64,000 nt of DNA, from positions 96,001-160,000 of IMG/VR virus record IMGVR_UViG_3300042544_003795; one strand, given 5' to 3'. The notes under the pieces are model-generated. The model saw only the letters and a program-made list of their open reading frames with translations. It made no database searches and had not been told where the DNA came from. The stretch comes from a virus. Below, piece after piece: positions 17,404 to 64,000 of this stretch (the first letter of the stretch is position 1; the number at the start of each line of letters is the position of its first letter). Position numbers and translations under genes: made by a program.

Positions 17404-17405
17404 AT

Positions 17406-32054: not shown

Positions 32055-33124
32055 ATTTTTGATAATAGTGTATCTACAGTATTTTGTACACTGAATACAC
32101 TAGGAAGAGTTGATATAGTTTTTTCGCCAGAATTAAAAAATTCAACGGCTTCCAAAATTTTATCTTCTACTTCTTTATCATCAAAATCAAACATGTTCCC
32201 TTGATTAACTATATTACCTAATTTGAAAAAGGCATCATCATAAATAGGAATTTTCTGAGAAGGTTTTACAATAATAGCATTACCATTGTTAATAAAATCA
32301 GAATGAGCATGAGCATCCATTGCTACACAAACCTTGTTAAGAGAAAGCATATTAAACAAAGGAAGATTAAATCCTTCTGCGCCGGAAAGACCGGAAAGAT
32401 CAATATCACAAGAATTCATTAGTTTGTTTACTTCTGAATTTTTATCTTGACGAGATATTAGATTAACATTCCAAGGAATAGATCCCTCAAAGATTTGATT
32501 CAAAATTTGTTCCCATTTTTCTCTCTCTATAAAAGGGTTATCTATTAAGCAATTTAATCTATATCTTTTATCATTACCGAAAAGCTTCTTCCATATTCTG
32601 ATTATCTTTTCTGTATGTTTTCTTTTTTCAAATTTTCCAATAAGCAAAAAGTTAATAGCATCAACTCTTGGAACAAGAGGATCAGCTTTTACATGAATAG
32701 AATCAAAATAAGGATGGCAGACTCCTACATTTTCTAGACCTTCAGATTTAGCAACCTCATAAGAATAATTACTAGAAAACAATACCAAGTCATTATTTTT
32801 AATAATATTTTTTTCAACTTTAGTTAAAGTATCCGTTTCATGGAATGTCCATAAAATAGTTTTATCAGACAAACGTCTTTCAGATTCAATTAAATGCCAA
32901 AGTCTAATCGTAGGAAATTTACGAGAAAAATTGGCATGAGCTTTTTGACAACAGAATTGGAGCCAATCAAAAAATGGTTTATCAATATCGTAGGCTTTTA
33001 AATCTACTTGCCCGATAGGAAATATATTAGGAAGGAATTTTCTATCGAAAAACTCTTTCAATAATCCAAATGATACTTGACCAAAAGATAATCCATTAAT
33101 TGGAACTTCTAAATTTATATTCAT
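32051..33124 (-). CDS. GT4-like glycosyltransferase
   Basis: LSFGQV, IGKFEKRK, SGAEGFNLP. Confidence 0.75.
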   Translation of the reverse strand: MNINLEVPINGLSFGQVSFGLLKEFFDRKFLPNIFPIGQVDLKAYDIDKPFFDWLQFCCQKAHANFSRKFPTIRLWHLIESERRLSDKTILWTFHETDTLTKVEKNIIKNNDLVLFSSNYSYEVAKSEGLENVGVCHPYFDSIHVKADPLVPRVDAINFLLIGKFEKRKHTEKIIRIWKKLFGNDKRYRLNCLIDNPFIEREKWEQILNQIFEGSIPWNVNLISRQDKNSEVNKLMNSCDIDLSGLSGAEGFNLPLFNMLSLNKVCVAMDAHAHSDFINNGNAIIVKPSQKIPIYDDAFFKLGNIVNQGNMFDFDDKEVEDKILEAVEFFNSGEKTISTLPSVFSVQNTVDTLLSKI

Positions 33125-45726: not shown

Positions 45727-48700
45727 TTAAAGAAGATTGTCCGGAATTATAATAGCTTTTTCGGCAGACCAAGAAAAAGCAAAAGTTATAGATCCAGCTG
45801 GAGAAACTTTTGAAATTTGAGAAGAGTCTAAAATTTTATTAGCTCCATAAAAAATCGAATTAGAAATTTGATTTACTCTATTCCTTAACTGAGCTACTGT
45901 TTTCTCGTAAGAGCAACAAACGGGTTTAATCAATGTCCCTTGGATATTAAATGCCGCCCTTTTTATTATTTTAATGTCTTCTATATAATGACAGCCATTA
46001 CTATTAATAGGCAATGAAGCTTTTATTTCTTTTAAAGCTGGAACGAAAGAATATTCATAAGTAAAATTTTGTAAACATCCACAATCAGAACCTAAACTGT
46101 TGCAAAATTTAGCACCTATTTGAATGGTTCCTTCAAATTGGTTCTCTGAATAAGAATTATCTTTTTCATTGAAATTCAATCTTTCCGTATTACCGAATTT
46201 TGTCCATTTTTGCTGCACATAATCTGCAAAATCTAAATTATTATAATATTTGTAAACATTATCCCATCTATCTTTTTTACATTTTATCTCAGATCTTATA
46301 GTCAAATTAGCTTCTATACATTTTCTTGAAGTTATTAGATCATGAGTGATTCGAGTTTCGTCTATTGTATAAACTTTATTGTCTTGTTTATTTGAAAACT
46401 CTAAAGAAAATCCTACGCTATTATTAGAGAAATCTCTTTGAAGAGAAAAATTTGTGGGAGTTGTATATAGTGGAGAAAAATCTTCCGGATAATATTCAGT
46501 CACAGAGTAATCACTCCCTAACTCTGAAAGAGCTTTATTTATATAATCTATAAAAGTCGGGATCATCAGAAATTTGCCTCCATTCCCAATTAATCCCAAA
46601 GTTATAATTTCATCATTTGGGGTAATTAAACATACATTGCTTCCGCTATCCCCAGCTATAAAATCATTAAAAAATAAACTTTCAGGAGAAAGATTTGATT
46701 GAACATATTCGTTGAAAGTATCATCAATGGAAAATTGTTGTGTTTGCTGATCTGTTACTGTAATTTTTTGAAATTTCCCGATACAAGCTCTTTGAAAAGG
46801 GGATGCTTCACTTACTCCCGGACTACTCTCTTCTATTTGGTCTCTGCAAAATAAAGAGTAATCTTTTAAATCTATAAAATTTTTATAATTTTTGGTGAGA
46901 ACTCTAAAAAACTTTACAGTATCAGGCAAAGCTTCGTTAAGAACTCCTAATCCTAAATCTGAAGCTATTTGATTAGGATGCCCTACTTCTAATATAGAAA
47001 CTAAAGTTCTAGTTAAAACTTTATTATCATTAGTTAGAAAATATAAAGTTTGACCTACATTAACAGGGTAATGATAAGCAAATAAATAATGCTTTGGAGT
47101 AATTAATATACCTATTTTTCTATTTTCATATCCAGATTCACTACTAGCGACAACAAACCCTGAAATATCTATGCCATAAATCCAGCAAGATGGATTTTTT
47201 ACAAAAGTCAGAGTGGATGTACTAAAAGTGCTCCATATTCTTTTTTGTTCAGTCGTTCCAGTTAATCCTGCTACTCTTTGAGATATTCTAGATGAAAAAT
47301 TAGGATATTTAAATTCTTTTGATTCCGTAAGATACATTTCATTAGCTGTTGAATACCAATCTTTAGTTGATATATCATATTTAATAGCTTCTAATGTGCT
47401 ATCTTTAGAAGAAATTTCATTCAATCCTTTAGCTAATAATGGACCTTGGTGAGTTCCATCTATTTTGACTGAAACTTCTCCATTTTCAGAAATAGACATA
47501 TCTCTAACATATTTTAAAATACCATAATGACTTTTAGATAAACCAGATTGTAAAACAAAAGTTTTAGTTAAAGATACTTCACCTGTTAATCTATTTAAAG
47601 TTTCATTTTGAGAAATTAAAAAAGAGTTATAAGAATTTAAATCCGCTGTTTCAAAATAATTTTCTATAGCAGCTTTCCAAATGTAAAGAGATTTAGTAGC
47701 TACAGTTGTATATAAAGATACAGAATTAGAATCTACTATAGATAATTGAAAAAATGGAAATAAAGATCTCTTTGTATCGTATGTTATAGATATTTTATAC
47801 CAACCATTACCAGCATCGGAAATATAATGGTTAATGTAAGAAGTCGCTTTATTTTCATCTACATAAATAGATCCTTTCTGTCCAGTTTTTATATTGAACC
47901 AACCTCTAATTAAATAAGGATCTAAACCTGAATAGTTAATAGTTCCCCCGTAAACATAAGGAGTAGTAGTTGTATTAGCATATGATATTGAAGTACTTGT
48001 AGAACCGGTAACTACAAAAGTCCCATTGTATCCAGATGGATTAATATTCTCTACAGTAACTGTAGTCCCAACCGATATAGTTCCTGATCCAGCTAAATAT
48101 GTTATAGTAGCTGTAATTCCATTTCCACTTGCTCCAGTAACTCTAAATTTTTCAAAACCGAATGATAAAGTAACCCATTCCGCTGTTACTGCTTTGACGT
48201 ATATAGATGTTTTATATCTTCCTGAAGTAGTAGAACCATCTCCCGGATTTATTATACTCCCTTTTATAAGATTCAATCCATTGGAAGGGCAAGCAATTCC
48301 GTCAGCTGTTAGAGATCCATCAGGAGCCAAAGTATCATTGGGCAAAACGCCCATATTTACTGTTTTCCAATATGTGTCATTATCAAATGCGCTTTCTGAT
48401 ATAAGAATATTACTCTCATTTATTAAACTTGAGTAAGTTAAGTAAAGATTATTTAAATCAGAACTTAATAAATTAGAGTTAGAAGCTACAAAATTTTTAG
48501 CATTTTGAAAACCACCTTGTGTTTTATTTAATCCTTTGCAAGAACATGAAAGTGTTATATTTATTGTGTTGTCAGGAGAGACTTCTAATCCTAAATTTCT
48601 TTTAGGCTCTATTATTCCATAATTTTCAAAATATCCTTTTTTAAAACATTCTATATTTATAGTATAGGGCACCCAATCGTACCATTTGTTGTCATCAAAA

Positions 48701-49089
48701 CTTATAGATTTGATTATGCAATTTTCCCATTCTTCGACATTCTCGTAGCCTACTATACCTTGTATACCTTGAATACCCTGTACACCTTGTACCCCTCTAT
48801 TTTCTATTAATTGTAACTTTTTAAAATTTTTAGAGAATTTGGAAACAAGCAAATCTGCTACATTTTTAATCCCTTCGAATCCAGATTCGCAAGGATTATA
48901 ATATGAGCCTGTCGCTCCAGTTACTGAAATCGGATAATTTCTTTTTATTCTCCCTGTTAAAGATAAATTGTCTACTAAATTTATATCAGAATTAGAATAG
49001 ATATTCTGAACATCTCTTGATATAAAAGGTGTTGGACCTATATTAGAAAAAATATCTTCCGAATCGTATAAAACTTTAACTTCACTCAT
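45727..49089 (-). CDS. Putative tail protein with inserted spike-like, Gly/Thr beta and trypsin-like protease domains
   Basis: APDGSLTAD..GNGWYKISI; PSGYNGTFVVT; LITPKHYLFAYH..SDLGLG..GDSGS. Confidence 0.6.
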   Translation of the reverse strand: MSEVKVLYDSEDIFSNIGPTPFISRDVQNIYSNSDINLVDNLSLTGRIKRNYPISVTGATGSYYNPCESGFEGIKNVADLLVSKFSKNFKKLQLIENRGVQGVQGIQGIQGIVGYENVEEWENCIIKSISFDDNKWYDWVPYTINIECFKKGYFENYGIIEPKRNLGLEVSPDNTINITLSCSCKGLNKTQGGFQNAKNFVASNSNLLSSDLNNLYLTYSSLINESNILISESAFDNDTYWKTVNMGVLPNDTLAPDGSLTADGIACPSNGLNLIKGSIINPGDGSTTSGRYKTSIYVKAVTAEWVTLSFGFEKFRVTGASGNGITATITYLAGSGTISVGTTVTVENINPSGYNGTFVVTGSTSTSISYANTTTTPYVYGGTINYSGLDPYLIRGWFNIKTGQKGSIYVDENKATSYINHYISDAGNGWYKISITYDTKRSLFPFFQLSIVDSNSVSLYTTVATKSLYIWKAAIENYFETADLNSYNSFLISQNETLNRLTGEVSLTKTFVLQSGLSKSHYGILKYVRDMSISENGEVSVKIDGTHQGPLLAKGLNEISSKDSTLEAIKYDISTKDWYSTANEMYLTESKEFKYPNFSSRISQRVAGLTGTTEQKRIWSTFSTSTLTFVKNPSCWIYGIDISGFVVASSESGYENRKIGILITPKHYLFAYHYPVNVGQTLYFLTNDNKVLTRTLVSILEVGHPNQIASDLGLGVLNEALPDTVKFFRVLTKNYKNFIDLKDYSLFCRDQIEESSPGVSEASPFQRACIGKFQKITVTDQQTQQFSIDDTFNEYVQSNLSPESLFFNDFIAGDSGSNVCLITPNDEIITLGLIGNGGKFLMIPTFIDYINKALSELGSDYSVTEYYPEDFSPLYTTPTNFSLQRDFSNNSVGFSLEFSNKQDNKVYTIDETRITHDLITSRKCIEANLTIRSEIKCKKDRWDNVYKYYNNLDFADYVQQKWTKFGNTERLNFNEKDNSYSENQFEGTIQIGAKFCNSLGSDCGCLQNFTYEYSFVPALKEIKASLPINSNGCHYIEDIKIIKRAAFNIQGTLIKPVCCSYEKTVAQLRNRVNQISNSIFYGANKILDSSQISKVSPAGSITFAFSWSAEKAIIIPDNLL
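48749..48795 (-). repeat. 9-nt tandem repeat encoding collagen-like GVQGVQGIQGIQGIVG
   Basis: Direct inspection. Confidence 0.8.
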
Positions 49090-50786
49090 TATATTAATAT
49101 GTTATCACTTTCAATTTTCTTTGTATAATAGTAATCAAAAGTAGCATTGAATGTGTTTTCGAAAGGATTAAAAGTATAATTCATATTTTTCAAAAAAACA
49201 TTTTCAGCATAAACTCCCGATATAACTGTAGGTTTTTCAACTTTAGTAAAACACTCTGTTAAGTAATCTTCTATTTGTAAATTAGGTTTGCCTATAATTT
49301 TTATGGAATTAGAATAGGAACCTTCTGAAGATTGTCCAGCTGATTGAATTATTTCATTTGAATTCGGCACAAGAAATTTATTATAAATGTGAACAGGTTT
49401 ACTGTCTGAAATAGAATTAGTACAAAGAATAAAATTAGAATTTTCAGAATAATAAGATGGATTATTTGAATAAGTATTACTATAAGAAATTTCGCCATCA
49501 AACTCCTTGTAAGAAGTCGATTTATTATTTAAATAAAAATTGCCAGTTGGTTTGCATAAAAATTTATTTACTTTACTAGCCAAAGAAAATGTTCCACTTA
49601 TTCTAGAGTAAATTTCTGGATAGCCTCCTGTGTAACCCGATAGTGCTAGATTAAATCTTTTTTCTTTATTTTGTGATCTACCTATATAAGAACCATTCTC
49701 TTCTATAGTGAAATAACCGTCTTCGTCTTTAGATGAAGATCTGGAATTGTTAAATATATAACCTGAATTTAAATATTGAGGATCATTAGTGTAAGAATAA
49801 TTATATTGAACAGTTCCTTCTAATGGGTCTTCTTGTAAAGTTTTAGAAATTTCTGGATAAATCAAACTACAGGTTCCTGTATAAACATTCTGAAATCCTG
49901 TAATCAAATTAAAAGAACCTGATACTCTTTCATAAATTCCTGTTCTAACTGTATCCCATCTTGTTCTTGCTCCCATTAAGTTTCTTTCTATACCATCTCC
50001 ACTAAATAAAATAGATTTTAAAGTTCCATTCTCTGAGGCTACTATATTATTACCATTGAAATCTACTGAATGAGAAAATTCCCATGTCGCTGAATTATTA
50101 TTATCATAATAACTTCTTTTAGTAAGTGAATACTCATTGTTAATAGTATCACAACTTTCATTTGAATATGTTATATATCCGCTATAAATATTTCCAGTTA
50201 TAATAGATGGAAATATACTTTCGATTCCTATATTCGGAATTCTATATTGAGAAAATCCTGAGAATATTTTATTTTTTAAATTTATTCTTGAATTTAAATC
50301 TAAAGGACTATCAATAGAAACAGAAATTTCTTGAGCTGTTTCTTGAATACCATTCGCATTCATTGAAATTGAAAATGATTCGTCTATAGATTTAACATAT
50401 TTAAAATCGTTTTGAAAAATGCTTTTATCTATTTCTAGATAATTATTGCCAGTTAAATTATATAGATTGCCAGAAGAGGGAATTTCAAAATTTAATGAAA
50501 AAACTTTATATTGCAAATCATTTCCTTCCTCCCAATTTAAAGAAGTTATTTTTCCTGTACCCAAATTAATACCATGCAATACAAAACTAGAATATCCAAA
50601 TCCTGATTCTATAATATTTTTCATGCCTGTATATGCTACAGAAATAGAATTTAAATTGGAATCTCCTGTTACTCTAGATCTTATAGAATAACTATCCAAT
50701 GATGAGAAACAGAATATATTTCCTAAAAAATTAAAAGTTTTACTAAAAGAAAGAGATTCTATATCATTGAAATATAAAGTATTCAT
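49089..50786 (-). CDS. Putative tail protein with internal repeats
   Basis: Immediately downstream of the giant ORF; repeated ENG..., GTVQYNYSYTNDP / GEISYSNTYSNNP units. Confidence 0.55.
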   Translation of the reverse strand: MNTLYFNDIESLSFSKTFNFLGNIFCFSSLDSYSIRSRVTGDSNLNSISVAYTGMKNIIESGFGYSSFVLHGINLGTGKITSLNWEEGNDLQYKVFSLNFEIPSSGNLYNLTGNNYLEIDKSIFQNDFKYVKSIDESFSISMNANGIQETAQEISVSIDSPLDLNSRINLKNKIFSGFSQYRIPNIGIESIFPSIITGNIYSGYITYSNESCDTINNEYSLTKRSYYDNNNSATWEFSHSVDFNGNNIVASENGTLKSILFSGDGIERNLMGARTRWDTVRTGIYERVSGSFNLITGFQNVYTGTCSLIYPEISKTLQEDPLEGTVQYNYSYTNDPQYLNSGYIFNNSRSSSKDEDGYFTIEENGSYIGRSQNKEKRFNLALSGYTGGYPEIYSRISGTFSLASKVNKFLCKPTGNFYLNNKSTSYKEFDGEISYSNTYSNNPSYYSENSNFILCTNSISDSKPVHIYNKFLVPNSNEIIQSAGQSSEGSYSNSIKIIGKPNLQIEDYLTECFTKVEKPTVISGVYAENVFLKNMNYTFNPFENTFNATFDYYYTKKIESDNILI

Positions 50787-50809: not shown

Positions 50810-53800
50810 CTAACCTGTTGTTGCTGGAGGCGCTTTGGTAGGAGGAGCAGCTGGAGGCGGTTTCCCCGCTGCACTAGCCACTTCTCTATTATGCTGTTCA
50901 ACCATACCTATAATAGATGGTTTTAATTTTTCTATCATTTCAGGTGTAATCCCTTCTCCTGTTATATTCACACTTATCTGAGATGTAGTATTTACATTCG
51001 TAGTATTTACAACTCCTTGAGCACCTTGAGCGTTTTGACCTTCAGCTGCACCTTCTGTCGCGGCTCCTTGAGCATTAGTAAGTCCAGTCACAGCATCTAC
51101 AAGAGGTTTTATAACTGCTCCTAGTTTATTCTCTTCCTCTTTTGTTTGAGCTATTTGTTTTTCTATTTGAGCTTTTTTACTCTTTTCATCTTTTACGTTT
51201 CCAACATTATTTAAATCTTCAAAAGTTTGACCTTCTTTTTTTGGTATAACTTTATTATAAGCATTTTTCAAAGCTCCACCTGTTTGTTCATCGGCCTCCT
51301 CTGCTGTAACCTCTCCTCGTATAAACTTATTAATGAAATCTGATTTTTTTCCGTCATTATCCGGCCCCATATCAGCCATTGCTTCAAAGCCTACTTTACT
51401 TCTATCTCTTCTTTTCGCCTCTATATCTGCTATATTTTTATTTATAGGATCTAACTGAGCTTCTTGATCTTGTCTCTCTACAACTTTAGCATTATAAGCT
51501 TGAACTTTTTTCTTGTCTTCTGGTTTTTGTATTTGATCCATGATAACAGGAGCTACTTGACCTTTAAATAGTTCATTGTTTATAGCTCCCATGTTCTGAT
51601 CTGTAGCCCGAGCTACATCTTCAGTACCTTTTTTTACTTCACCTCTTAATTGGGTTTCTTTTTCAGTATTTTTAGCTTTAGCCTGTAGCTCTTTCATTCT
51701 CTCTCTTTTCACTATATCCAAACCATCTTGTGGATCTGCTAATATTTTTGTATCAGTCGCTTCTCTTGATTCTAATTCAGTTTTTCTAGCAATCTGTCCT
51801 TCACTAAGAGGCCCCATACGATCTAACTCCCTTAAATCTTGAAGCTCTAATTTATTGTCTTTAGCTTCTTTTCTAGTGTCTAATGTTTTTGCATCTGTAG
51901 CCTCTGTTAATTCTAATTGTTCTTTTCTTTTTTTATCACTATCAGTAAGAGTTCCGTAAGGCTCTTTAGCTCTTAAAATATTAAGTTCTTTTCTATTACT
52001 TTCAGCTTTATCAAAACTTCTAGTTTCATCTTCAAGACCAGTAAGTTCTGTTTTTTCGTCTGCTGTAAGAGTTTTTCCTTTAAGAGAATCTAACTCAGTT
52101 TTCTTTTTATCTAATTTTTCTATTTTTGCAGCTACACCTTGTAAATTTTTATCTTTGCTACCTTTCAATTTAGCTACATAAGAAGCTCTTACTTTAGCAG
52201 GATCTTTAGCATCAGCTTTCTTTTGGGCCTCAGCTATCAATTGATCTTCTGATAAAGTTTTTTCATCTGTTTCTATTCCTTTTCTTAAGTCCGCTATTTT
52301 ACCTTTAGGATCTAGTCTTGCTTTAAATTCTCCAAGTTTTTTCTTTTTATCTCGTATATCTTTAGGGTTTACTCCTTTCCATGGTTCGAAATCCGAATAA
52401 CTTGTTAGCTCCATATCAGCTGAAGATGTAGCCTCTAGTTCCGCCTTTCTTTTTTGTGATTGTTCGGAAAGATTAGGTATCTTATTCAATGCTTCTAGTT
52501 CTTTTATATTACTGACAGATTTATCGTAAGCTGTAGTTTCTTTTTCTAAACTGGTAAATTGATTTGCTTCATCAGCAGAAAGCGGATTAACTTTCTCAAG
52601 AGATTTGATTTCATCTTTTTTAGCTTGTATTCCTTTTTTTAATTCTTCTGGATCTCTTGGTGGTCCGACTCCTCTTCTAGATTGCAATAATTCAAGATAA
52701 CCTTTTGGATCTGCCATTTGAGCTTGAGCAGTAACACTTTTTATTTTATTATCAAGATCAATTTCTTTTTTAGCAGCCATATTAGCTTTCAAAGACTCTT
52801 CTTCTTTTTTTCTTTCTTCTGGTGTTAATGGAGTTAATTGCTCTTTTCCATCCTTTCCTTTCCTCATCACTCCGTTTTTAAGGTAATCTTGATTCTTTTT
52901 TATATTTTCGTCTATTTGCGCAGCATCTTGTAAAGGAGCTGTTCCTCTTTGTTTCTCTAAAGATTTTAAATATTGAACCGGATCTTCAGCCAATCCAGCT
53001 TTTACTCTTGCTGTTTCAGATTTATTTTTTATTCTAGCCGCAGTATTTTCAGCTTTATCTGATTTAAAACCGGCTAACTGTTCTTGTGCTTTTTTTACTT
53101 CCTCGGGAGACATTTTAACTCTTTCGATTTTTCCATCTTTACCTTGTACCTGTCTCCCTTCTCTCAAGTCTTCCTCAACTCTTTGAATTCTCTCATCATC
53201 TTTTTTACCATCTCCTAAAACTTTTGCTGTCTCTTCTAATCCCTGAAGTCTTTTTACATTTATATCTGTTTCTTGAGGAGTTTTACTTTTTGTTTTAGCT
53301 GGTAATACAGCATCTTGAGTTAAAAATTTAGAACTTTCAGTATTGTAACTTTCAGCAGCAGATATAGCGGCATCTATTCTTTCTCTCTTCGCGGCTAAAG
53401 TGGTATCAGATCTTTCTATTTCTTTTTCAAAATTTCGACCCGCATCTTTTTTTCTTTTAGTTAAATTACTTATCTGATTATCCTCCAGAGTAGTATCTAA
53501 ACCCTGTTTAGCTTTTGCATCTTTTTTAGCTTGAGCCTCTTTAATTCTTTTTTCCACTGATACCTCATCCTCTTTAAAAGAGAATCCAGAGCTTTCTACT
53601 TGTGAAATATAAGCATTTCTAGCTGAGATTTCTTCTCTCGATCTATCGTTTCCTCCTTCATCCATTAGAGTAGATGCTTTTAAATTTTCAAAATCAGTTT
53701 CTGTAGCTTTTCCGCTTTTCATCCTTTCTTGAAAACTTACTAGATCATCCATTACAAAATCTTGTTTAAGTGTGGCAGCTGTACCAGTATTTATTGTTCT

Positions 53801-56800
53801 CTGGTAATTTAAAGGAGTTTTTATTTTTTCAACAGCTTTTTGATTATCTATAATTCTTTGTGGTTCACCTGCCTCTGCTACACTTCTTTCTTGTCTAAGC
53901 TGTACGTTTTTCGCTTTTTCAGCTTCAAAACTTTTATAATCTTGTGTTTGAGTTACCGCAGCTGATCTTCTTAATATATCAGCTTGTTCTGACCCTCTAC
54001 CAGTTAATGATTTTGCAGTTATATTAGCTGTCGAGCTTGCATAATTAGGCATAGCGGCGGAGCTAGGATTCATTGATGTGTTAGTTGCTGCAACACCACT
54101 ACTAGGAACAGTTGTAACACCAGCTCCAGCTACGCTAGGAACCGTTGGAACACTGGCTCCAGCTACGCTAGGAACAGTTGTAACGCCAGCTCCAGCTACG
54201 CTAGGAACCGTTGGAACACCAGCTCCAGCTACGTTAGGAACCACTGGGAATCCAGCTCCAGCTGCGCCTGCACTCGCAGCTATTGGAACATTTGCTCCGG
54301 CTGAAGCTGCCATTTGGTTATTATTAGCAAAAATGCTATTTACTCCACCAACTCCTTTTATTTCTCTAGCAAAACTTTGAACAGTAGAATCTTGAAAATA
54401 AGGATTATTAAATTTTTCATCTAACATTCTTTTAGATTCATCTGCTCCTGATCCTCCTATCTGTATACCTTCTGTAATTTTTTTTATAGATGCATCGGAA
54501 AAAATACTACCTTGATTAGATTTTGCTCTAGCCTTATTTAAATCCCTCAATTTTTGGCCTATATCATCTGCCATAGTTTTTTGCAACTGTGCTTTCCCGG
54601 ATCTTTCCTCGTTAGTTCTTTTAACTACATTATCTTTGCCGTATCTTTCAGCTTGAGCTTGTTCATCTTCATATTTAATTCTATCATTCTGCATCTCTAA
54701 ATTTGATGCTTCGACTAATAATTTTCTTCCTGTTTCAGTCTCTCCTCCGCCTGATCTTTCAGCTTTATCTCTTAATTTTTGTATTTTAGCATCTGTCTCT
54801 AATACTGCCCCAGTATTCATAAGTTTTTTAGTATATTGAGGGGGACCAGCTAAAGCACTTTTACCTATCTCAGCTAAATTCCTTCTTTGAGATTCTTTTA
54901 ACTGGTCTTGAGATATTGTATTTATAGATCTTAAGCCATCGGCTTGATCTATTCTTAATTTTTCTATACCTAGTACAACTTCTTGATTTATATCAGCTAT
55001 TTGGGATAAGATTTCTTTTGAGCCATCTGATGATCCTAAACTTTGCTTTATAAGACCTTCTAAAGATGAAAGATCTCCCCCTCCTTTTAATACAGAACTA
55101 GCTTGATTAAGAATATTTGATCTTTGTTCTATAGAAGCATTTTTTGGAATTAATGCTGTAAGCTGCTCCACTGCTTTAGAAACTATTTCAGTGCCTTTCT
55201 TTTCAGCATCTAAATTTAAGTCTTTTGTTTGAAGACTAGCTTGTCTATTTATACCCTCAGCTTCAGTAATTCTTCCCGATGCTCTATCCGAGTCTAGTCT
55301 GCTTTTTTCTATTGATAAATTAGTTCCCGCTGTTGAAAAATTCTTATAGTTTATCAATGCTGTATCTAAAGTTAAACCTTTCAATCCTTCATCAAAAACT
55401 TTTTGGAAGTCTAAGCTAAACCCTTGTATTCCTGTTTGCACAGTGTCATTCAGATTTTTATTAAAAGTCAAAAGCGCAGCTGCATATTTATCCATACTTT
55501 GTATAGAGCTATCTGTGAATTCTTTATTTAAATCTCCATAAGTTTTACTCGCCATTTTTACTTGAGACTCAGTTAGTCCTAACTCTGAACCGAATTGAGT
55601 TATAAAATCTCCCATACTTAAAGTCCCATTCCCCAATTTATCTATAGCCTCTGAAGCTTCTTTGGATTTAACTTTAGTAAAATCTATACTATCAATAATA
55701 GGATTTAAAAATGTGTCAAAATCTTCTGTTTTGAAATCTGAAGTTTTAGTTTTGTTGCCAAAAACACTAACATTTTCTTCTCTAGATTTCTTTATTATCT
55801 CAGAAGTAACCAAATTCCCTTGACTAAAATTCAGATCTTTACTCTTCTTTTCTTGAAAATTTGCTATAGCTTCTTGTTTTTTTAAATCACTTTTTTCATT
55901 TAATATCGTAGAAATTAATTCCGGATCTTTAATCCCTCCTAATGATTTAGCAAATGTGGATTGAGCTTTAGCTATCTTTTTTGGATCTCCTCCTGAAGTT
56001 TTTAATTCAGAAATTTCATTTTGAGATTTAATAGCTTCTTGCAAAGAAGTAATTTGAGATTCAGTGGATTGAATTAATTTTTGGTTGTTATTAGTCAATT
56101 CCAATGTAGATGGAACAGCAGCTTTAGTAGCTTTAGTGGCATAATTAAAAGCCCCTGCGAGAACCCCTACAATAGGGGCAATAGGAGCTAGAGCCGGAAC
56201 CATAGCTACCATCATTGCGGCTGAAGCTCCAGCTGCGATAGATTCTCCTATATTCTGAACCTCCTTTTGAGCCTTTGTTTGCTCTTTTCCTTCCTCCGGC
56301 GTTGAAAACATCCCAGTTACAGTAGAAGCAGTAAAGGCTAATCCCATCATTTTTGCATTGATAGCTCCAGCTTTTGCTGCTCTTTTCTCTTTTTTCTCTT
56401 GTTTGAGTTCTTGCGGAGTTTTTGTTACTTTATTATCTGAATCGGGTAGATCTCCGCCCATAGGCATTCCTCCTCCCGCAGGCATTGCTCCTTGTTTCCC
56501 CCCCCCTTGTTGACCTCCTCCTTGCAAAATTCCACCTTTCTGGTTCGCGTTTAGTTCTTTTTGTTTAGCAAAATCAGCTTTGTATTCTTTTCTTATTGAA
56601 CGTGATTCATTGTTTACGCTTCGTAATCTATTAGCTTTAGCTTTTCTTGCATCTTTTTCTACTTGAAATCTGTTCTCTATTTGAGTTCTTGGAAAACTTT
56701 GCATCCCTTTTCCTGCCCCTTGTATACCTTTCGTAGGTAAAATCGGAGATCCAAGCTTACCTCCGGGAGTCATAATCCCAGCTGCCACTGATCTATTGTA

Positions 56801-59800
56801 AAGTCTATCAGCTCTGATAGAGTCTGCTTTTCTATTCCTTTCTTCTGATCCTACAATTTGACCATCTCTATTTCTGAACAATTTGCTTTGCCCTTGTCCT
56901 CCTTTTTTAAATGTATTTTCAACACCTTTCGCTCCTACTCTTCTTTTATTAATTCTATCTTGAGTAAGATTTTTTAATATCTCTTTTCTACTTACAAACT
57001 GGTTCTGTGCTGTAAGAGTCGGCTGATATCTCCCCGGAGCTTGAGGTAGTTTAGCCATCTGCGCTTTAGCATTAGTGTAGTCAATTTTTATATTTCTCCT
57101 TTTTCTATCAGCATTAGCTTTAGCATCTCTTTTAGCTTGATCTTGAGGGGAAATGCCTGCTTTTTTGATAGGCGCAGCATTTGTGCGAGAAGCTTTTTTT
57201 TCGGCTTCAGCAGCTTTTCTTTTAGCTTGGTTTCTTTGAAAAATTTCTCTTGTAGCTTGAAAAGATCCTCCTAAACCTGATCTTAGACTACTGGGCAAAG
57301 CAGGTCTAGCTCTTACGGCTGCTACTTTTTGTTGAGCAGCTTGAGTTTTATCTTTTTTTTCCTGATCCTTGTCTGCATTCTTTTGTTTTGCTTCATTTCT
57401 TTTCCTTATTTTCTTTAAAGCTCTTTTCTCTTTGGGAGTCGCAAAATTAGGAATGAAACCTTCAGAAGAGGAATTAGGATTTTCTCTTGAAAAGCGAGAG
57501 CTTAAATAATCATCCACAGTTGGCACTATAACGCTCAAAGCTGTTCTGAGAGAAGGTAGATTGGCTCTTTGGACTGATGTTAATAGATTTCCTGTACTAT
57601 ATTGAACTTGATCTAAAACTTTTTTAAAAAATTCTATTTCATCAGAAGAAATGTCGGGAGCTCCATCTATTTGAGATATAAGAAGTGATAAAGCATTTGT
57701 AGAAGTAGGAGTATTTAGCATACTTCTAATTTTTAAAGCCAATGGACTATTAGCCGCAGTTTTTACTTTAGAGGCTCCTTGTCTTACCCTGTTCATTAAT
57801 GAGGGTCTACGAACAGGAATTTCAAAATTAGGAATAAAACCAAAAGCTGAAGTTCTGCTTACCAATCCGCTTGAACTATCTCCATAAGTTCTTTTTGTTG
57901 TAGGCTCTATTTTCGCCATTTTGGCGAAACTCATCCCCTTGGATAAAGTCTTTTCGTCCTTGTTAAAAACTGCAAGACCTTTTGGGTTAGATTTTGTTTT
58001 TAAACTAGCTCTTCTCCCAATCTTAACATCTTTTCTTTCAAAACCCGCACTCATTTCCGCGTTTACGGATTCATTTAAAGCTTTTCTTTCTTGTGCATAA
58101 GGAATTTTTGCAGGGGAAAGCCGAGAAAAGAAATTAGGAATAAAGCCTTTTGCAAAAGAAGTCGGTTTACCTCTCAATCCTAATCCTTGAATACTATATC
58201 CTCTACCTCTTTTTTTATTTGGATTTTTAGAACCCCTTATATCGTCACTTTTTTCGTCAAATCTTTTCGATAGGGGAATTAAATTTCCGTCATCATCATA
58301 CTCTACTAAAGCAGCTGATTTGATTTGTGAGGCATTCGGAACAACTAGCTCAGAAGACATAGTTTTTTCTTGAAGTGTTCTTCCTGCTATTCCCCTTATT
58401 GAGTCATAGGGTATTTTACCCTCCTTCATTAAAATAGCTGTACCTATTTTGTATTTTTCATTTTTTGCACTTCTTGATCTTAAAGTGGAAAGAAGCAATG
58501 AACGATTACTAATTTTAGCTATTTCTTCAGGACTTAAGTGGCCGTATTTGCCGAGTTTAGCGTAAGCATCATTGATAGCTATCTCATAATTGACTCTAGC
58601 ATTTAAATAAGGCATAAACTCATCAGGCAAATTTCCCGTTAAAGGTTTTTGAGCTTTTACATATACTTCGTCTTTCCTAAATTGAACATCACTAGCTTTT
58701 AATCCTAATGCTTTGAGTCTGTCTTCATGTGGTTTTGAATTTACAGATACATCTGACCCACCAATAGATAAAGAAGCATCTTCAGCAGTATAATATCCCG
58801 GACCAAAATTTAGATCTTTAATCTCTGAACGCAACGGAACCCCTTTATTATAAAAACCTAATCTAACCCCTTTTCTATTGTATGGGGAATCTTGAGCTTC
58901 TTTTTCAACCATCTTCTTCAAAAGATCTGTATTATTTTTCTCTACAGCTTCTTTATACATTTTATCTTTTTCTGAAGAGAAATCAAAAGCTGGAGTTTTA
59001 CTTATTTTAGCTAAACTAGATTCAACTTTTTCTCTTCCGTATTTTGCAATTAAGAAGTCATAAGTTTTTCTATCTATATTTCTGGCAAGATTCTTTCCAG
59101 ATTTTTTATTTCCAACAACGTCTCTAAAAAATGTTTTGTCGGAAGCAAGAGAAGGAGTTGCGAAATTAGGAATAAAACCTCTTGAATTAGTTTTTTTGCT
59201 ATACTCATTAACTTGATTTTTTAAATTTGGATCAATTACATTTGTATATCCGGCATCTATAATAGTAGCTTTACCTCCAGATTTAACAAACTTGTCGTAT
59301 AAATCCTGACTTGATTCAGGTACTTTATAGTACTTAACATAGTCCTTAAGCAAATTATTTTTATTTTCTTCAATAAATTTTCGACCTTGAGGATTTAAAG
59401 TATAATTGGCCCCATGAAGGTCATCCATTTCCAACCCAGCTTTTTTTAATCGGGCTTGCAAAATACGCCCGAAAACTCCAGAAGCCGCTATACCAACAGA
59501 GTCACGAGCCATTGGTTCTTTAATGATCTCTTTCCGAATGCTTTTAGCTCGCAATGCTCTTTCTAAATTATCTGGAATTTTAGGTCCTGTAATTCCGTCA
59601 ACTAGTCTTTTTTCAGCTAATAATTTTGATACTGTAAACTCATCTGTTATTGTTTTTGGTAAATTAGATTCAGATTTGACGTTTGCTGTTTTTGTGTCTT
59701 TTTTTGTTTCAAATCCTGCAAAAATTCCAGCTGACGAAGAGGGTTTTCTATTATAAAATCTTTTTACCCCTATATCCTTAGTTAATCTATGAAATGTTCC

Positions 59801-62800
59801 TTCTGCTCCGCCACCCATAAAAGAAGATTGGAGTGCAAAATTAGGAATAAATCCTTCAGAAGCGGACATACCTTTAGATCTGGGATCTATACCTTCTTTT
59901 TTAGCTAAACCCATTCCATTAGCTAAAGTTCCTTCATACTTATTATAAGTGCCAAAACCTTCTGGATTAAAAGGAGTTCTTAAAGAAGGGTTTTTACCCA
60001 TTCTTATTTTTCCGATAGGTATTCCAGCTTTAGCTTCTTTGGCTCTAGATTTCTTTTTGGCATTTTGAGTTTCTTTATAAGAAAGTTTTGAAGCAAAATT
60101 AGGAATAAAACCACTTGATAAAAAACGCTCTAAACCATTTTCTCTTAGCACTTGTTCTCTAGTCTTTTTTCTTCCTCCAGTGTTTCTCGGTTTATTATAT
60201 CTTGCGGACAGAATAGCTTGAACCCGATCTTCATCAGATAAAGGAGCTATTTCACTAACAGGCATATTTCTATCCTGTACATCAGTTGGTAATTGTCTTT
60301 CTGTTAGTATCTGTTGCTGAATTTTCTTATAACTGTTTGTAGTTTTCCTTGCTCTACTTCCTTGTCCTGCTAAATTAGCCGCCCATTCTTGAACTTTCCT
60401 TTCATCATCGGATAGAGGACCTGTTTCTATAGCAGGCATATCACTGTCCGGTACACTCATCCTTTCAGGATAGGCATTCATTGTCATTCCAACTTCTTTA
60501 CCCATGTTAGGTAGATCCCTCGCCCTAGTGGAGCCCTGAAAACGTAACTTTGGAATAACTATTTTAGGAACAATTCTTTTACCATTTACTATCTGTGTTA
60601 GAGGTCCGGCATTAGTTTGTCTACGAGTTATTGGATCAATATCATTTAAATCAGGGACAGCTATATAATTGGTTAATTTTATTCTGTCGTATTTATCTGG
60701 AACGCCTTCTGTAAAAAGGGGTAAAAGCATTGGACTTAACTCAGCTATATTTTCAGGAAGAAATCTCCCATATTTATCTCCAACTTTGGGAGCTGTCCAA
60801 TCTCCAGCTTTAGCTTCAAGTAAAGAGATTTCTTTATTTTCTATAGAATCTATTGAGAATGCATCGACTGCGTTATTGCCTTTATTAAATCCGGTGTTTC
60901 TAGTCGGAATAAATTTAGGGCCTACTTTTGTTTTATTGGCTTGCTGTATAGCGTATCTTTCAAAAACTCCAGTATAATCAGTTTGATCTACTTTGCCATC
61001 TTTTCTATTTTTATCTTTAAAGCGATAAGAATCTGGAGCAGATTGCAAAATTGAAGACATTAAATTTCTTCTTGAGCCCCCTTTATCAGGAATCTTAACT
61101 TGAACTTGTTCAAAAGAAATTGTACTAATTTTATCATCAAACTCAACATTTTTATTGCCTCTAGACTGAGCTAAAGCAAATTGATTCGCAGCATTTACAT
61201 TATTAGGTAAAAATTGTGATATATCTATATAATCATCAGATTCATCAATTTTACTATTTAAATTAACATTCTTTTTACTCTTCGACTTAGGATTATTTAT
61301 TGGTTCATCAATTATATCATCGACATAATCATCTGTTTGCAGAGCCTTGTACATCCTAGTCGCTCTATCTAATATTCTACTTCCAGAATCAGATTCTTGT
61401 ATTCTCTTTCTTTGTTTCCTAAGCGCTCGTATTTCGTCGGCTTGTTCTGGAGGGGTTATATTTTTTCCAACTGTATATATTTTTGGTGGAAGCTCTCCTA
61501 GCCGTCTATTTATTTTATCAATTGCTTTATTCTTTTTTAGAGAAGTTCTTCCCATTGTTTTATCAATAAATGCGGTCCTATTTTGTATTTGAGGTAAATT
61601 AGCTATTAAAAGATCTTCTGACCCTCCCGCAGCTAATCTCCTAATTCCTTTTGTATCTCCTTCTCCAATTGCTTTTCTTAATTCAGTTCCACTTATACCC
61701 TCAGTCCTAGCGTCCTGCACCACTTGTAATCCCTTTTCTGTATATTTTGCGGTTTCATAGAGTCCCTTATCGTCACCTACTAATGCAATACTTCCGGGAG
61801 TAGGGCTTAGATATCTTCCGTCTGACACTTTAAAAACAGAAGGTATTCTACCTCTGAATTCGGAAGACGGAATAACTGTTGTTTTGGCTCCAGTCGCTTT
61901 TTTTATTAATTGTCTTCTAAGACCTATAGGAAAAACTGAGGTACGATAAGAATGTTTATCGCCTTCCTTAAGTGTAGCTCCAGAACTAACTCCGAATACT
62001 ATATTCTCTGGTTCGAAACCTAACGAACGAGCTTGTGTAAACATTTCCTTATGCCCTTCCGTAAATGGGGCAAAAGCTCCATATGCGAATGCAATTTTCT
62101 TCTTTTCAATATTAAGTTGTTTTTTAATTATAGATGTTTTATCACCTTCTCTTTGCAATCTTGCGACAGGAACACCTTTATTTTCAGCCACTGCGGCTAT
62201 ATAATTAGGGTCTTCAGGATTTTTTCCTACAGTTTCTAGTAATGATTTCCCAGATCTACCTTGATTTGCTATTGGGTTATCACTAGCTGCTCTTTTTTTA
62301 GCAGACTTTATTTGATCTTCTCTGGATATTTGTAGAGAAATTAGCCTATCTACTCCTCCGAAAAGTCCTTCTTGTAAACTCCTTTCAGCATTTGACTGGG
62401 AAGCTTTTGTAGCTACGACTTCATCAACTTTGTCAATGTCTGACTCTTGTAGAATTGGTATTCGAGTCGTTTTTCTAAATTTACTATCATCGCTCTTTTT
62501 TGGTATGCCATATTTGTCTGCATTAAATGCAAGAGAAGTTTTTCCTGACCCCGGAGCACCATAAATTCCAGTAATTCTTTTTAAACCTCCGGTTTTTCTT
62601 TTTTGCATAGCATAATTACCTAAATGCTCCCAATACTCATGCGTTTTTGAGTTGCCAAGTCTTTCCATTTCTGAATTAACTATCTGTGCGTATTCAGGAT
62701 TAGCTAAAACATCGCCATCTAATATACCAACTCTTCTAGTAATTTCTGCAAAATTCGGAATAAAGCCTTTGCTTGAAAAGTAAGAAGGAAGAGCCGCCGT

Positions 62801-64000
62801 AGAATTTTCTTGTCTTTTAATTAATGTGTATGGCTTTTCAAAAGATATAGGTTCTTTGATTTTATTTTTGAAAAATGGAAACTTTGATCTTTTATCTGTT
62901 TTTGGCAATTCTAAAGCTTTGGTTTGTAAAGCTTTTGAAACCAAATTATCTCTAGTTATTTCTCCCGCTTTAACTTCTGCTATCCCCTGCCTCTTTGAAT
63001 TGATTATGTCCATTCTTGCACCTTTACCAGTTGCTAATACAGATGCTTCTTTATTTATTTCATTAAACGCTCTTTGTCCTGTTTTCTCAAACATATTCCC
63101 ACCTACTTTAATAGCGAATCCATTTATTTGATTTTCGATAGAATCATTCTTTTCGCCTTCTATTAAAGGCATAGATGAGTCTTTAACTTCACCACGATTT
63201 CTTAAATTATCAATTAATAATTTTACCCCATCTTCAGTATATCCATTTTTTAGGCCTATATTAGTTATAAATTTTGCTTTATCTTCTGTAAATTCTCCTG
63301 CAAGTTTTTTCTTTATGCCTTTGATATAATCCGGAGTATTTAATGATACAACATTATATTTTAAATTTTTTATAGTATCAACACCAACATCTGCAACACG
63401 AGAAGATTGTTCTCCTGAAATTTTACCTGAATATTCGATTGATTGTAATTGTCCATCATCATTTTTATTATATTTACTTATATCCTTTTTTTTAATTTTT
63501 CCTATTCCTTTTCCCCTCTCCAAAGAGGCTTTTGCGAAATTTGGAATAAAGCCTTTGCTAAATGATCTACGTTTATATTCGTTAATTTTTTCCTTTGCTT
63601 CTTTGCTTCTTGCTTCTGCCATGCCAGCGTCCACAATAACAGCTTTGCCTCCAGCCTTTACGAAATCTTCATAAAGTTGGTTATCTGAGTCATATGATGC
63701 TCCCGCTCTACGCGAAGACAAATAATCTAAATGTTTTTTTAAGAAATCTTGACCTTTGGCGTTTACACTGTAATTTTCGCCAATTAGATCGCTCATAAGT
63801 ACGCCAGAATCGTACATCTTACCCTCTAATATTTTTCCAAAGCCATTCGATGCATCCCTTCCAATTGACTTAATAGCCATTGGATCTTTTATTATTTCTT
63901 TTCTAATACTGCTTGTTCTTACGGATCTATCTAATGTGTCTGGAATTTGAGGTCCTGTAACCCCCGGAATAAGGTTGCCTTCCGATAAAAGTCTGGATAT
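50810..64000 (-). CDS. Giant tape-measure-like polyvalent protein (>4,396 aa, 5' end outside the window) with GFIPNF-delimited enzyme cassettes
   Basis: Frame stays open from 63880 to 64000 (ISRLLSEGNLIPGVTGPQIPDTLDRSVRTSSIRKEIIKDP-M); 8x GFIPNF; hydrophobic Ala/Gly segments near 56150-56355; long coiled-coil; lies just upstream of tail genes. Confidence 0.75.
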   Translation of the reverse strand: MSRLLSEGNLIPGVTGPQIPDTLDRSVRTSSIRKEIIKDPMAIKSIGRDASNGFGKILEGKMYDSGVLMSDLIGENYSVNAKGQDFLKKHLDYLSSRRAGASYDSDNQLYEDFVKAGGKAVIVDAGMAEARSKEAKEKINEYKRRSFSKGFIPNFAKASLERGKGIGKIKKKDISKYNKNDDGQLQSIEYSGKISGEQSSRVADVGVDTIKNLKYNVVSLNTPDYIKGIKKKLAGEFTEDKAKFITNIGLKNGYTEDGVKLLIDNLRNRGEVKDSSMPLIEGEKNDSIENQINGFAIKVGGNMFEKTGQRAFNEINKEASVLATGKGARMDIINSKRQGIAEVKAGEITRDNLVSKALQTKALELPKTDKRSKFPFFKNKIKEPISFEKPYTLIKRQENSTAALPSYFSSKGFIPNFAEITRRVGILDGDVLANPEYAQIVNSEMERLGNSKTHEYWEHLGNYAMQKRKTGGLKRITGIYGAPGSGKTSLAFNADKYGIPKKSDDSKFRKTTRIPILQESDIDKVDEVVATKASQSNAERSLQEGLFGGVDRLISLQISREDQIKSAKKRAASDNPIANQGRSGKSLLETVGKNPEDPNYIAAVAENKGVPVARLQREGDKTSIIKKQLNIEKKKIAFAYGAFAPFTEGHKEMFTQARSLGFEPENIVFGVSSGATLKEGDKHSYRTSVFPIGLRRQLIKKATGAKTTVIPSSEFRGRIPSVFKVSDGRYLSPTPGSIALVGDDKGLYETAKYTEKGLQVVQDARTEGISGTELRKAIGEGDTKGIRRLAAGGSEDLLIANLPQIQNRTAFIDKTMGRTSLKKNKAIDKINRRLGELPPKIYTVGKNITPPEQADEIRALRKQRKRIQESDSGSRILDRATRMYKALQTDDYVDDIIDEPINNPKSKSKKNVNLNSKIDESDDYIDISQFLPNNVNAANQFALAQSRGNKNVEFDDKISTISFEQVQVKIPDKGGSRRNLMSSILQSAPDSYRFKDKNRKDGKVDQTDYTGVFERYAIQQANKTKVGPKFIPTRNTGFNKGNNAVDAFSIDSIENKEISLLEAKAGDWTAPKVGDKYGRFLPENIAELSPMLLPLFTEGVPDKYDRIKLTNYIAVPDLNDIDPITRRQTNAGPLTQIVNGKRIVPKIVIPKLRFQGSTRARDLPNMGKEVGMTMNAYPERMSVPDSDMPAIETGPLSDDERKVQEWAANLAGQGSRARKTTNSYKKIQQQILTERQLPTDVQDRNMPVSEIAPLSDEDRVQAILSARYNKPRNTGGRKKTREQVLRENGLERFLSSGFIPNFASKLSYKETQNAKKKSRAKEAKAGIPIGKIRMGKNPSLRTPFNPEGFGTYNKYEGTLANGMGLAKKEGIDPRSKGMSASEGFIPNFALQSSFMGGGAEGTFHRLTKDIGVKRFYNRKPSSSAGIFAGFETKKDTKTANVKSESNLPKTITDEFTVSKLLAEKRLVDGITGPKIPDNLERALRAKSIRKEIIKEPMARDSVGIAASGVFGRILQARLKKAGLEMDDLHGANYTLNPQGRKFIEENKNNLLKDYVKYYKVPESSQDLYDKFVKSGGKATIIDAGYTNVIDPNLKNQVNEYSKKTNSRGFIPNFATPSLASDKTFFRDVVGNKKSGKNLARNIDRKTYDFLIAKYGREKVESSLAKISKTPAFDFSSEKDKMYKEAVEKNNTDLLKKMVEKEAQDSPYNRKGVRLGFYNKGVPLRSEIKDLNFGPGYYTAEDASLSIGGSDVSVNSKPHEDRLKALGLKASDVQFRKDEVYVKAQKPLTGNLPDEFMPYLNARVNYEIAINDAYAKLGKYGHLSPEEIAKISNRSLLLSTLRSRSAKNEKYKIGTAILMKEGKIPYDSIRGIAGRTLQEKTMSSELVVPNASQIKSAALVEYDDDGNLIPLSKRFDEKSDDIRGSKNPNKKRGRGYSIQGLGLRGKPTSFAKGFIPNFFSRLSPAKIPYAQERKALNESVNAEMSAGFERKDVKIGRRASLKTKSNPKGLAVFNKDEKTLSKGMSFAKMAKIEPTTKRTYGDSSSGLVSRTSAFGFIPNFEIPVRRPSLMNRVRQGASKVKTAANSPLALKIRSMLNTPTSTNALSLLISQIDGAPDISSDEIEFFKKVLDQVQYSTGNLLTSVQRANLPSLRTALSVIVPTVDDYLSSRFSRENPNSSSEGFIPNFATPKEKRALKKIRKRNEAKQKNADKDQEKKDKTQAAQQKVAAVRARPALPSSLRSGLGGSFQATREIFQRNQAKRKAAEAEKKASRTNAAPIKKAGISPQDQAKRDAKANADRKRRNIKIDYTNAKAQMAKLPQAPGRYQPTLTAQNQFVSRKEILKNLTQDRINKRRVGAKGVENTFKKGGQGQSKLFRNRDGQIVGSEERNRKADSIRADRLYNRSVAAGIMTPGGKLGSPILPTKGIQGAGKGMQSFPRTQIENRFQVEKDARKAKANRLRSVNNESRSIRKEYKADFAKQKELNANQKGGILQGGGQQGGGKQGAMPAGGGMPMGGDLPDSDNKVTKTPQELKQEKKEKRAAKAGAINAKMMGLAFTASTVTGMFSTPEEGKEQTKAQKEVQNIGESIAAGASAAMMVAMVPALAPIAPIVGVLAGAFNYATKATKAAVPSTLELTNNNQKLIQSTESQITSLQEAIKSQNEISELKTSGGDPKKIAKAQSTFAKSLGGIKDPELISTILNEKSDLKKQEAIANFQEKKSKDLNFSQGNLVTSEIIKKSREENVSVFGNKTKTSDFKTEDFDTFLNPIIDSIDFTKVKSKEASEAIDKLGNGTLSMGDFITQFGSELGLTESQVKMASKTYGDLNKEFTDSSIQSMDKYAAALLTFNKNLNDTVQTGIQGFSLDFQKVFDEGLKGLTLDTALINYKNFSTAGTNLSIEKSRLDSDRASGRITEAEGINRQASLQTKDLNLDAEKKGTEIVSKAVEQLTALIPKNASIEQRSNILNQASSVLKGGGDLSSLEGLIKQSLGSSDGSKEILSQIADINQEVVLGIEKLRIDQADGLRSINTISQDQLKESQRRNLAEIGKSALAGPPQYTKKLMNTGAVLETDAKIQKLRDKAERSGGGETETGRKLLVEASNLEMQNDRIKYEDEQAQAERYGKDNVVKRTNEERSGKAQLQKTMADDIGQKLRDLNKARAKSNQGSIFSDASIKKITEGIQIGGSGADESKRMLDEKFNNPYFQDSTVQSFAREIKGVGGVNSIFANNNQMAASAGANVPIAASAGAAGAGFPVVPNVAGAGVPTVPSVAGAGVTTVPSVAGASVPTVPSVAGAGVTTVPSSGVAATNTSMNPSSAAMPNYASSTANITAKSLTGRGSEQADILRRSAAVTQTQDYKSFEAEKAKNVQLRQERSVAEAGEPQRIIDNQKAVEKIKTPLNYQRTINTGTAATLKQDFVMDDLVSFQERMKSGKATETDFENLKASTLMDEGGNDRSREEISARNAYISQVESSGFSFKEDEVSVEKRIKEAQAKKDAKAKQGLDTTLEDNQISNLTKRKKDAGRNFEKEIERSDTTLAAKRERIDAAISAAESYNTESSKFLTQDAVLPAKTKSKTPQETDINVKRLQGLEETAKVLGDGKKDDERIQRVEEDLREGRQVQGKDGKIERVKMSPEEVKKAQEQLAGFKSDKAENTAARIKNKSETARVKAGLAEDPVQYLKSLEKQRGTAPLQDAAQIDENIKKNQDYLKNGVMRKGKDGKEQLTPLTPEERKKEEESLKANMAAKKEIDLDNKIKSVTAQAQMADPKGYLELLQSRRGVGPPRDPEELKKGIQAKKDEIKSLEKVNPLSADEANQFTSLEKETTAYDKSVSNIKELEALNKIPNLSEQSQKRKAELEATSSADMELTSYSDFEPWKGVNPKDIRDKKKKLGEFKARLDPKGKIADLRKGIETDEKTLSEDQLIAEAQKKADAKDPAKVRASYVAKLKGSKDKNLQGVAAKIEKLDKKKTELDSLKGKTLTADEKTELTGLEDETRSFDKAESNRKELNILRAKEPYGTLTDSDKKRKEQLELTEATDAKTLDTRKEAKDNKLELQDLRELDRMGPLSEGQIARKTELESREATDTKILADPQDGLDIVKRERMKELQAKAKNTEKETQLRGEVKKGTEDVARATDQNMGAINNELFKGQVAPVIMDQIQKPEDKKKVQAYNAKVVERQDQEAQLDPINKNIADIEAKRRDRSKVGFEAMADMGPDNDGKKSDFINKFIRGEVTAEEADEQTGGALKNAYNKVIPKKEGQTFEDLNNVGNVKDEKSKKAQIEKQIAQTKEEENKLGAVIKPLVDAVTGLTNAQGAATEGAAEGQNAQGAQGVVNTTNVNTTSQISVNITGEGITPEMIEKLKPSIIGMVEQHNREVASAAGKPPPAAPPTKAPPATTG
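54102..54266 (-). repeat. Five 33-bp tandem repeats (alternating A/B units) encoding SVAGAGV(T/P)TVP
   Basis: Units start at 54102, 54135, 54168, 54201, 54234 (ctaggaac...ccagctacg). Confidence 0.9.
57443..63553 (-). repeat. Dispersed peptide repeat GFIPNF x8
   Basis: At 63536-63553, 62750-62767, 60095-60112, 59837-59854, 59162-59179, 58130-58147, 57824-57841, 57443-57460, all in the same frame. Confidence 0.95.

Follow-up and report, generated by a model that had tools for sequence, protein, structure and literature searches.

Polyvalent proteins are single giant chains, encoded among virion genes, that combine disparate conflict enzymes, with ART-PolyVal and GNAT domains among them, and are mosaic between relatives (PMC5512222). 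Thermus phage P23-45 possesses a tape measure of ~5,000 residues, gp96, which bears a folded enzyme; this is one fixed, N-terminal virion RNA polymerase, fused to the tape measure and suggested to work at the pore once ejected (PMC10770324), and the protein is not known to have a repeated motif. In actinobacterial contractile injection systems, effectors of the Sle1 type join a tape-measure-related scaffold to an exchangeable functional domain and are loaded into a tail-like particle (PMC13277306). The tape measure gpH of phage lambda harbors no enzymes and sheds a 14-kDa C-terminal piece, cut in a glycine-rich region at a site and by an enzyme that are unknown (PMC12617516), and a published scheme of the TP901-1 tape measure shows a cytoplasmic domain alongside two hydrophobic regions (PMC5099701). 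Tape measures fused to one enzyme, and tape-measure-like effectors that can be exchanged, have been described before (PMC10770324, PMC13277306). The literature searched contained no tape measure whose several cassettes are set apart by a repeated peptide at which recombination takes place.

Such a protein is encoded in the window, i.e., the whole stretch of 64,000 nucleotides analysed here. Together with its relatives it shares with polyvalent proteins the single giant chain, the place among virion genes, the mosaicism, and the ART-PolyVal and GNAT domains (PMC5512222). Unlike them, its carrier is a tape measure (the word "tape" does not occur in that paper), a recurring peptide separates its cassettes and is also their exchange point, and MPTase, MuF, ArdC, and LPD domains gave no Pfam match in the protein and 89 cassette representatives, although distant members may escape the profiles. 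It is about as long as gp96, and carries up to ~ten internal, swappable cassettes in place of one enzyme. Sle1-type effectors have a single C-terminal domain, belong to a bacterial nanomachine, and are sometimes accompanied by an immunity gene (PMC13277306), whereas a phage carries here an internal, multi-cassette array. The reading preferred here, held with somewhat better than even confidence, is a cargo array that resembles polyvalent proteins and is delivered together with the tape measure; delivery in some form is considered quite probable.

The window is phage DNA of 31% GC with replication and tail genes on its minus strand. The ORF of interest is truncated at the window edge, and its part inside amounts to the 3' 4,396 codons. 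The full protein (P0159) is 5,095 residues long, is identical to the window part over 4396/4396 residues, and was found on 41 contigs, the largest of 170 kb. The 699 residues added beyond the edge hold another GFIPNF (residue 649) and a degenerate GYIPTY (residue 540), for a total of ten motifs. The PhageMin_Tail domain (PF10145), matched on P0002, lies within the first 540 residues, just outside the window, and the PHROG TMP profile matches the N-terminal part with an E-value of 3e-38. Pfam and PHROG scans of the whole protein gave almost no matches, and no tape-measure profile matches the C-terminal part. By its sequence, P0159 is a TP901-type tape measure (PF10145); the earlier note had named it a tape measure from traits of the C-terminal part, whereas the identity stems from the N-terminal matches. 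Four upstream genes, without any profile match, are conserved in the family, and minor-tail genes lie downstream in relatives. Chimeric assembly is discounted because contigs of four lake-water runs span the cassette zone without a single difference (single contigs in three runs, two overlapping contigs in the fourth), although these runs may themselves be the source of the sequence. A join from the last motif to that at residue 1111, seen in one run, was discarded, as one of its sides measures just 26 nt.

Table 1. Features of the tape-measure locus (positions in the window; on the minus strand the higher coordinate is the first base; residues numbered in P0159).
Feature	Coordinates	Strand	Remarks
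Tape measure gene	50810..64000	-	starts 2,097 nt outside the window; 5,095 aa in full
Kinase-fold cassette 1, C-terminal three quarters	63554..64000	-	catalytic D..N 63770-63796, DxG 63623-63637
GFIPNF, residue 849	63536..63553	-	
PD-(D/E)xK-type nuclease cassette	62768..63535	-	E..D..ExK; predicted from sequence
GFIPNF, residue 1111	62750..62767	-	
Triple cassette: P-loop kinase, HIGH-type nucleotidyltransferase, second PD-(D/E)xK-type nuclease	60113..62749	-	Walker A 62537-62560; nucleotidyltransferase 61676-62068; nuclease 60803-60970
GFIPNF, residue 1996	60095..60112	-	
Small conserved module, copy A	59855..60094	-	RE..AG, NPxGLxVxN
GFIPNF, residue 2082	59837..59854	-	
Kinase-fold cassette 2	59180..59836	-	minimal protein-kinase-like fold
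GFIPNF, residue 2307	59162..59179	-	coil, pLDDT <50, between two confidently modelled domains
~70-aa module and ART-PolyVal-like ADP-ribosyltransferase fold	58148..59161	-	
GFIPNF, residue 2651	58130..58147	-	
Small conserved module, copy B	57842..58129	-	40% identical to copy A
GFIPNF, residue 2753	57824..57841	-	
117-aa cassette	57461..57823	-	no homologue among sampled cassettes
GFIPNF, residue 2880	57443..57460	-	last copy
Hydrophobic segments behind a very basic linker	56147..56350	-	candidate membrane anchor closing the cargo loop
Long charged C-terminal region	50810..56146	-	presumed ruler or channel
Two downstream genes	45727..50786	-	presumed tail tip; shared with a family subgroup

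GFIPNF occurs exactly eight times in the window, always in one frame of this ORF, and six-frame translation revealed no copy elsewhere; 5e-5 copies are expected from composition. The count and the seven spacings given earlier (262, 885, 86, 225, 344, 102, and 127 residues) were all reproduced, as were the (S/A)-x-GFIPNF-A context (S or A at position -2 in 8/8, a trailing A in 6/8) and the absence of the motif from the C-terminal end, where the final 2,216 residues hold none. The synonymous variation reported between copies exists at G, P, and F. It does not extend to Ile, which is ATT in 8/8 against 38% in the gene, and the copies are more alike than codon use predicts (0.68 vs. 0.54), for which reason the motif DNA is partly homogenised as well. 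Within the family, P and N of the motif are almost invariant. An intein or other self-splicing element was rejected, since Asn must then be followed by Ser, Cys, or Thr and the motif Asn precedes Phe or Tyr. A full-text literature search with GFIPNF and its variants returned nothing relevant, and GFIPNFA-containing short ORFs from the viral scan appear to match by chance.

The protein displays an array of independently folding cassettes between its N-terminal tape-measure domain and its C-terminal ruler region. Catalytic residues, alignments, and folds agree with the earlier domain calls (kinase-like, nuclease, P-loop with nucleotidyltransferase, ART-like). The two kinase-fold cassettes, 39% identical to each other, belong to the protein-kinase-like superfamily as judged from their residues and from the model of cassette 2, which superimposes on Rio2 (Z 10.4, rmsd 3.4, 152 aligned residues) as well as on Bud32 and other minimal kinase-like folds. 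Its G-loop, VxK, D-x4-N, and DxG are all intact, and the catalytic D, N, and DxG are invariant among eight homologues, kinase 1 included. Two further cassettes are predicted to hold PD-(D/E)xK-type nucleases: E..D..ExK of the first is invariant in five homologues, the E..D..(E/D)xK set is invariant in the alignments of both, and their language-model neighbours are REase-like. The ART cassette is linked to ART-PolyVal (PF18760) by fold, with ART-PolyVal-like matches in BFVD (E 1e-9), and by alignment: it falls below the Pfam cut-off itself, whereas its aligned homologues clear it. Domains of motif-free giant proteins other than tape measures share 41-48% identity with the cassette, and a word-indexed search found no free-standing homologue of its length. 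In its subgroup the catalytic His of the YHGT motif is substituted and the C-terminal Glu is retained; the missing family His is a point against a delivered enzyme. The ~70-residue module fused to the ART here is a separate cassette in the relative P0017. The small module, mostly the final unit of the array in relatives, is predicted in copy A as a small α/β domain with no clear structural match (best Z 3.4; TM <0.5). PDB sequence searches with the kinase and nuclease parts, as with the trypsin-like part described below, were blank or spurious.

Two DNA pattern scans yielded more than 200 viral stretches and, after removal of near-duplicates, 165 proteins. Their layout is constant: the tape-measure domain is followed by a lead module, by cassettes that vary, by a small terminal module, and by a long C-terminal part; profile comparison relates the lead and terminal modules with a probability of 97%, the motifs they share being included. 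The majority of the sufficiently long loci found via N-terminal patterns alone carry the motif, and two complete ones have degenerate or canonical forms of it. In three complete relatives (genomes of 148-178 kb) the motif is restricted to the tape-measure gene. This argues against a general packaging tag on free-standing genes, where the earlier note had suggested looking for it. Among 42 complete members, cargo length ranges from 210 to 2,231 residues, P0159 being the largest. Clustering of the 272 long cassettes gave 99 clusters, and the cassettes of relatives include GNAT, thermonuclease, and GHKL ATPase domains. The family is one of widespread uncultured aquatic phages: neither a cultured relative nor a host was found, cultured phages reaching 24-28% identity among the matches listed. 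N-terminal homologues in GTDB, which lie in metagenome bins of many unrelated taxa, are most likely mis-binned phage contigs. Another protein lineage (L109, L018, L090, L101) bears the GFIPNF-bounded small module towards the end of the chain (residue 1631 out of 1798 in L109), at the usual place of the canonical FAxGG domain described below. In another protein (L110:1-9213), ~17 motif-like sites fence short, duplicated, non-enzymatic segments, resembling a run-away duplication at the motif.

Cassette content is variable among close relatives, between which the earlier note had proposed to compare cassette order. P0003 and P0004, the closest ones, have neither the two kinases nor the ART, and three pairs with N-termini 92-98% identical carry different cargo (L099/L115, L168/L193, L034/L225). 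When protein alignments are made with the motifs masked, 51% of their ends within the array fall within 10 residues of a motif in both partners, against 0.8% at random, and 93% of the ends of DNA blocks with at least 85% identity between relatives fall at the motif, against 15%. Shared ancestry and redundant pairs make these counts non-independent, and short words common to two sequences attract the ends of local alignments. Individual exchange pairs are unambiguous despite this. In L008/L011, 95% identity runs through nucleotide 1907, with the motif at 1888-1905, and blocks generally start at the motif's first base and end with a peak 15-21 nt into it. The placement of the motifs at domain boundaries and their suggested use as a recombination joint are both upheld by these figures. 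Relatives compared at this resolution show cassettes gained, lost, and swapped via recombination at the ~20-bp motif DNA with the frame preserved. The nuclease cassette opens with a copy of the 52 nt at the start of the kinase-1 unit; this copy is missing in P0003 and is likely a recombination scar: the 52 nt from the motif at residue 849 are 85% identical (44/52) to those from the motif at residue 649. An exact 52-nt repeat just beyond the window edge was rejected accordingly, the copy being inexact.

Throughout the family, every synonymous codon of the motif is in use. Between close pairs, the synonymous change of motif codons is as high as upstream (0.247 vs. 0.218) and the non-synonymous change is lower (0.095 vs. 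0.142). This codon comparison demonstrates that the peptide is kept by selection at the protein level, and the earlier claim that the peptide itself is conserved holds. When two cassettes are modelled together, the motif forms coil with pLDDT <50 between domains at ~90, and its low value is partly expected because few alignment rows cover the linker; the model places the motif in a linker and not, as a structural repeat would be, inside domains. An origin is suggested by ordinary tape measures, whose C-termini show a nine-residue unit AxGGx(V/I)xx(F/Y)A followed by xGG, with GGx(V/I) six residues ahead of (F/Y)AxGG in 77 of 89 canonical sites. Aligned in this register, AxG(G)FIPNFA is the AxGGx(V/I)xx(F/Y)A unit in which P-N has become fixed and the trailing GG has been lost. 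Descent from the ordinary AxGG tape-measure repeat explains the motif better than a new signal does. In the relative L227 the same modules are fenced by FAAGG/PRFNKG/SRFAKG, and in three jumbo-phage tape measures (P0006-P0008) the cassette with P-loop and nucleotidyltransferase begins after FAxGG-type motifs. The canonical FAxGG-bounded domain matches lambda gpH 733-796 (probability 89%). Such a C-terminal, lambda-type domain is present in 81 of the 97 relatives with a long C-terminal part and is absent from a subgroup comprising the window protein, L020, L226, L233, P0003, and P0017. At least in the window, P0003, and L226, the downstream tail gene set also differs from that of most of the family. 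As the small module and the canonical domain share no profile match, it is the motif alone that is tied to the latter. Most likely, the motif serves as a short linear site to which a partner in tail assembly binds.

A role of the motif in processing is plausible, by analogy. The 14-kDa piece of gpH (PMC12617516) would begin at residues ~715-720, directly ahead of FATGG; the link between GFIPNF and gpH cleavage is positional only. A cleavage polyprotein, in which the motif would be a protease site akin to the gpH maturation signal and free enzymes would be packed and released into the host, is possible though not favoured; this estimate for cutting at the motif holds with or without delivery, and those given for the several readings overlap and do not add up to certainty. 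It is consistent with a motif modelled in an exposed linker, with the near-invariant P and N, with the fencing of whole domains, and with a gene of one relative (L240/L241, G004:C1:11661-12317) for a lambda gpK-like fusion of JAB and NlpC/P60, a candidate tail protease. However, JAB is found in just two of five complete relatives and NlpC/P60 in one, and no protease is common to the family members checked. Furthermore, three enzyme domains are joined motif-free within one cassette, as are the ~70-residue module and the ART. Downstream in the window, the 1,120-residue gene product encoded at 45727-49089 (minus strand) carries an insert (46653-47097) with a trypsin-like H/D/GDSGS pattern and no database match, possibly a serine protease acting on the cell surface; homologues about half as long lack it, which also speaks against cleavage. 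A further proposal, that the AxGG/GFIPNF unit is the processing signal of tape measures and that this family multiplied it, making of the tape measure a cleavable polyprotein that injects recombinable free enzymes via the tail, seems rather unlikely; if true, it would constitute phage-to-bacterium protein delivery with a defined loading grammar. Among the replication genes of the window there is a ClpP-like protease gene (31437-32054, minus strand; PF00574, E 2e-14), for which a search without positive control gave no match in three complete relatives.

According to the preferred reading of a delivered cargo array, the cargo would be packed with the tape measure, probably unfolded inside the tail tube, and would leave ahead of the DNA at ejection. 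The basic cargo loop would then refold on the cytoplasmic side, between a hydrophobic segment at residues 428-446 and the hydrophobic segments past the last motif, where its nucleases, kinases, nucleotidyltransferase, and ART may act on targets of the host or of rivals within minutes of infection. Such a fate on the cytoplasmic side parallels the one proposed for the polymerase of P23-45 gp96 (PMC10770324), and Sle1 (PMC13277306) and the TP901-1 topology (PMC5099701) are further precedents. That the tail probably carries the enzymes into the host is suggested by the swapping of modules exactly at motif DNA of the tape measure, and a cytoplasmic loop by the position of the cargo between conserved hydrophobic segments. 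A hydrophobic segment precedes the array in 56 of 67 proteins, follows it in 46, and lies inside it in 3, and the array has a net charge of +4.3 per 100 residues. In P0159, a simple hydropathy scan places segments at residues 428-446 and 3295-3313, a bracketing that the loop topology fits. Cargo that stays tethered is ranked above released cargo. As a rule, tape measures specify ~0.15 nm of tail per residue, and that of P23-45 has 5,002 residues for a tail of 800 nm. Two consequences are counted against delivery: 2,231 residues of cargo in the tube would imply a tail of ~0.75 µm, and tail lengths of close relatives would lie hundreds of nm apart. The cassette system is well supported, and we only infer cleavage and delivery.

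Folded domains do not fit into the lumen of a tail tube. This favours cassettes that are not delivered and would be removed or looped out in tail assembly, acting late in the producing cell in host shut-off or rival-phage exclusion, with the tape-measure gene as a strongly expressed, recombination-friendly site. Consistently, the remainder of the protein is not shorter when the cargo is long (rho +0.38, n=42). However, fusion to a tape measure brings no gain to late cytoplasmic enzymes, the array keeps its position between the hydrophobic segments, and its domains come from the pool of polyvalent proteins that virions deliver (PMC5512222), which makes this reading unlikely. Least probable is a selfish or neutral accretion, in which insertion of nuclease-bearing DNA at the motif would duplicate the latter and the cassettes would be tolerated passengers or length filler. 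PD-(D/E)xK-like signatures, present in 114 of the 272 long cassettes against 2.8% in shuffles, would fit it, as would the 103 proteins among 135 that have one or more nuclease-like cassettes, the likeness of motif copies within the gene, and the 52-nt copy, but many kinase, GNAT, nucleotidyltransferase, and ART cassettes have conserved active sites, synonymous sites of the motif vary freely while its amino acids do not, and a splicing signature is absent, Phe following Asn.

In an abundant family of uncultured aquatic phages, the gene of an essential tail protein thus serves as the locus where cassettes of conflict enzymes are kept, and their exchange point is mapped to ~20 bp. Its ~100 cassette clusters form a catalogue of candidate early anti-host or anti-defence enzymes. 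Since the same nine-residue unit borders the cleaved region of lambda's tape measure, where and how tape measures are cut becomes testable.

Other features were observed in the window and the family. A sheath profile found no match in three complete relatives. Within the C-terminal part of the tape measure, a 33-bp tandem repeat of ~six copies (54069-54266) encodes an 11-residue unit rich in Val, Pro, Ala, and Gly. The α subunit of DNA polymerase III is apparently split into separate genes (13982-18167, minus strand), with an NTPase/finger gene at 13982-16552 and, by eye, exonuclease-like and PHP-like genes. Many glycosyltransferase-like or sugar-modifying genes are also found on the minus strand (3-5425, 10839-12530, 27219-28415, and 32051-33124), including one confirmed GT1 and one GDP-mannose dehydratase-like gene recognised by eye.
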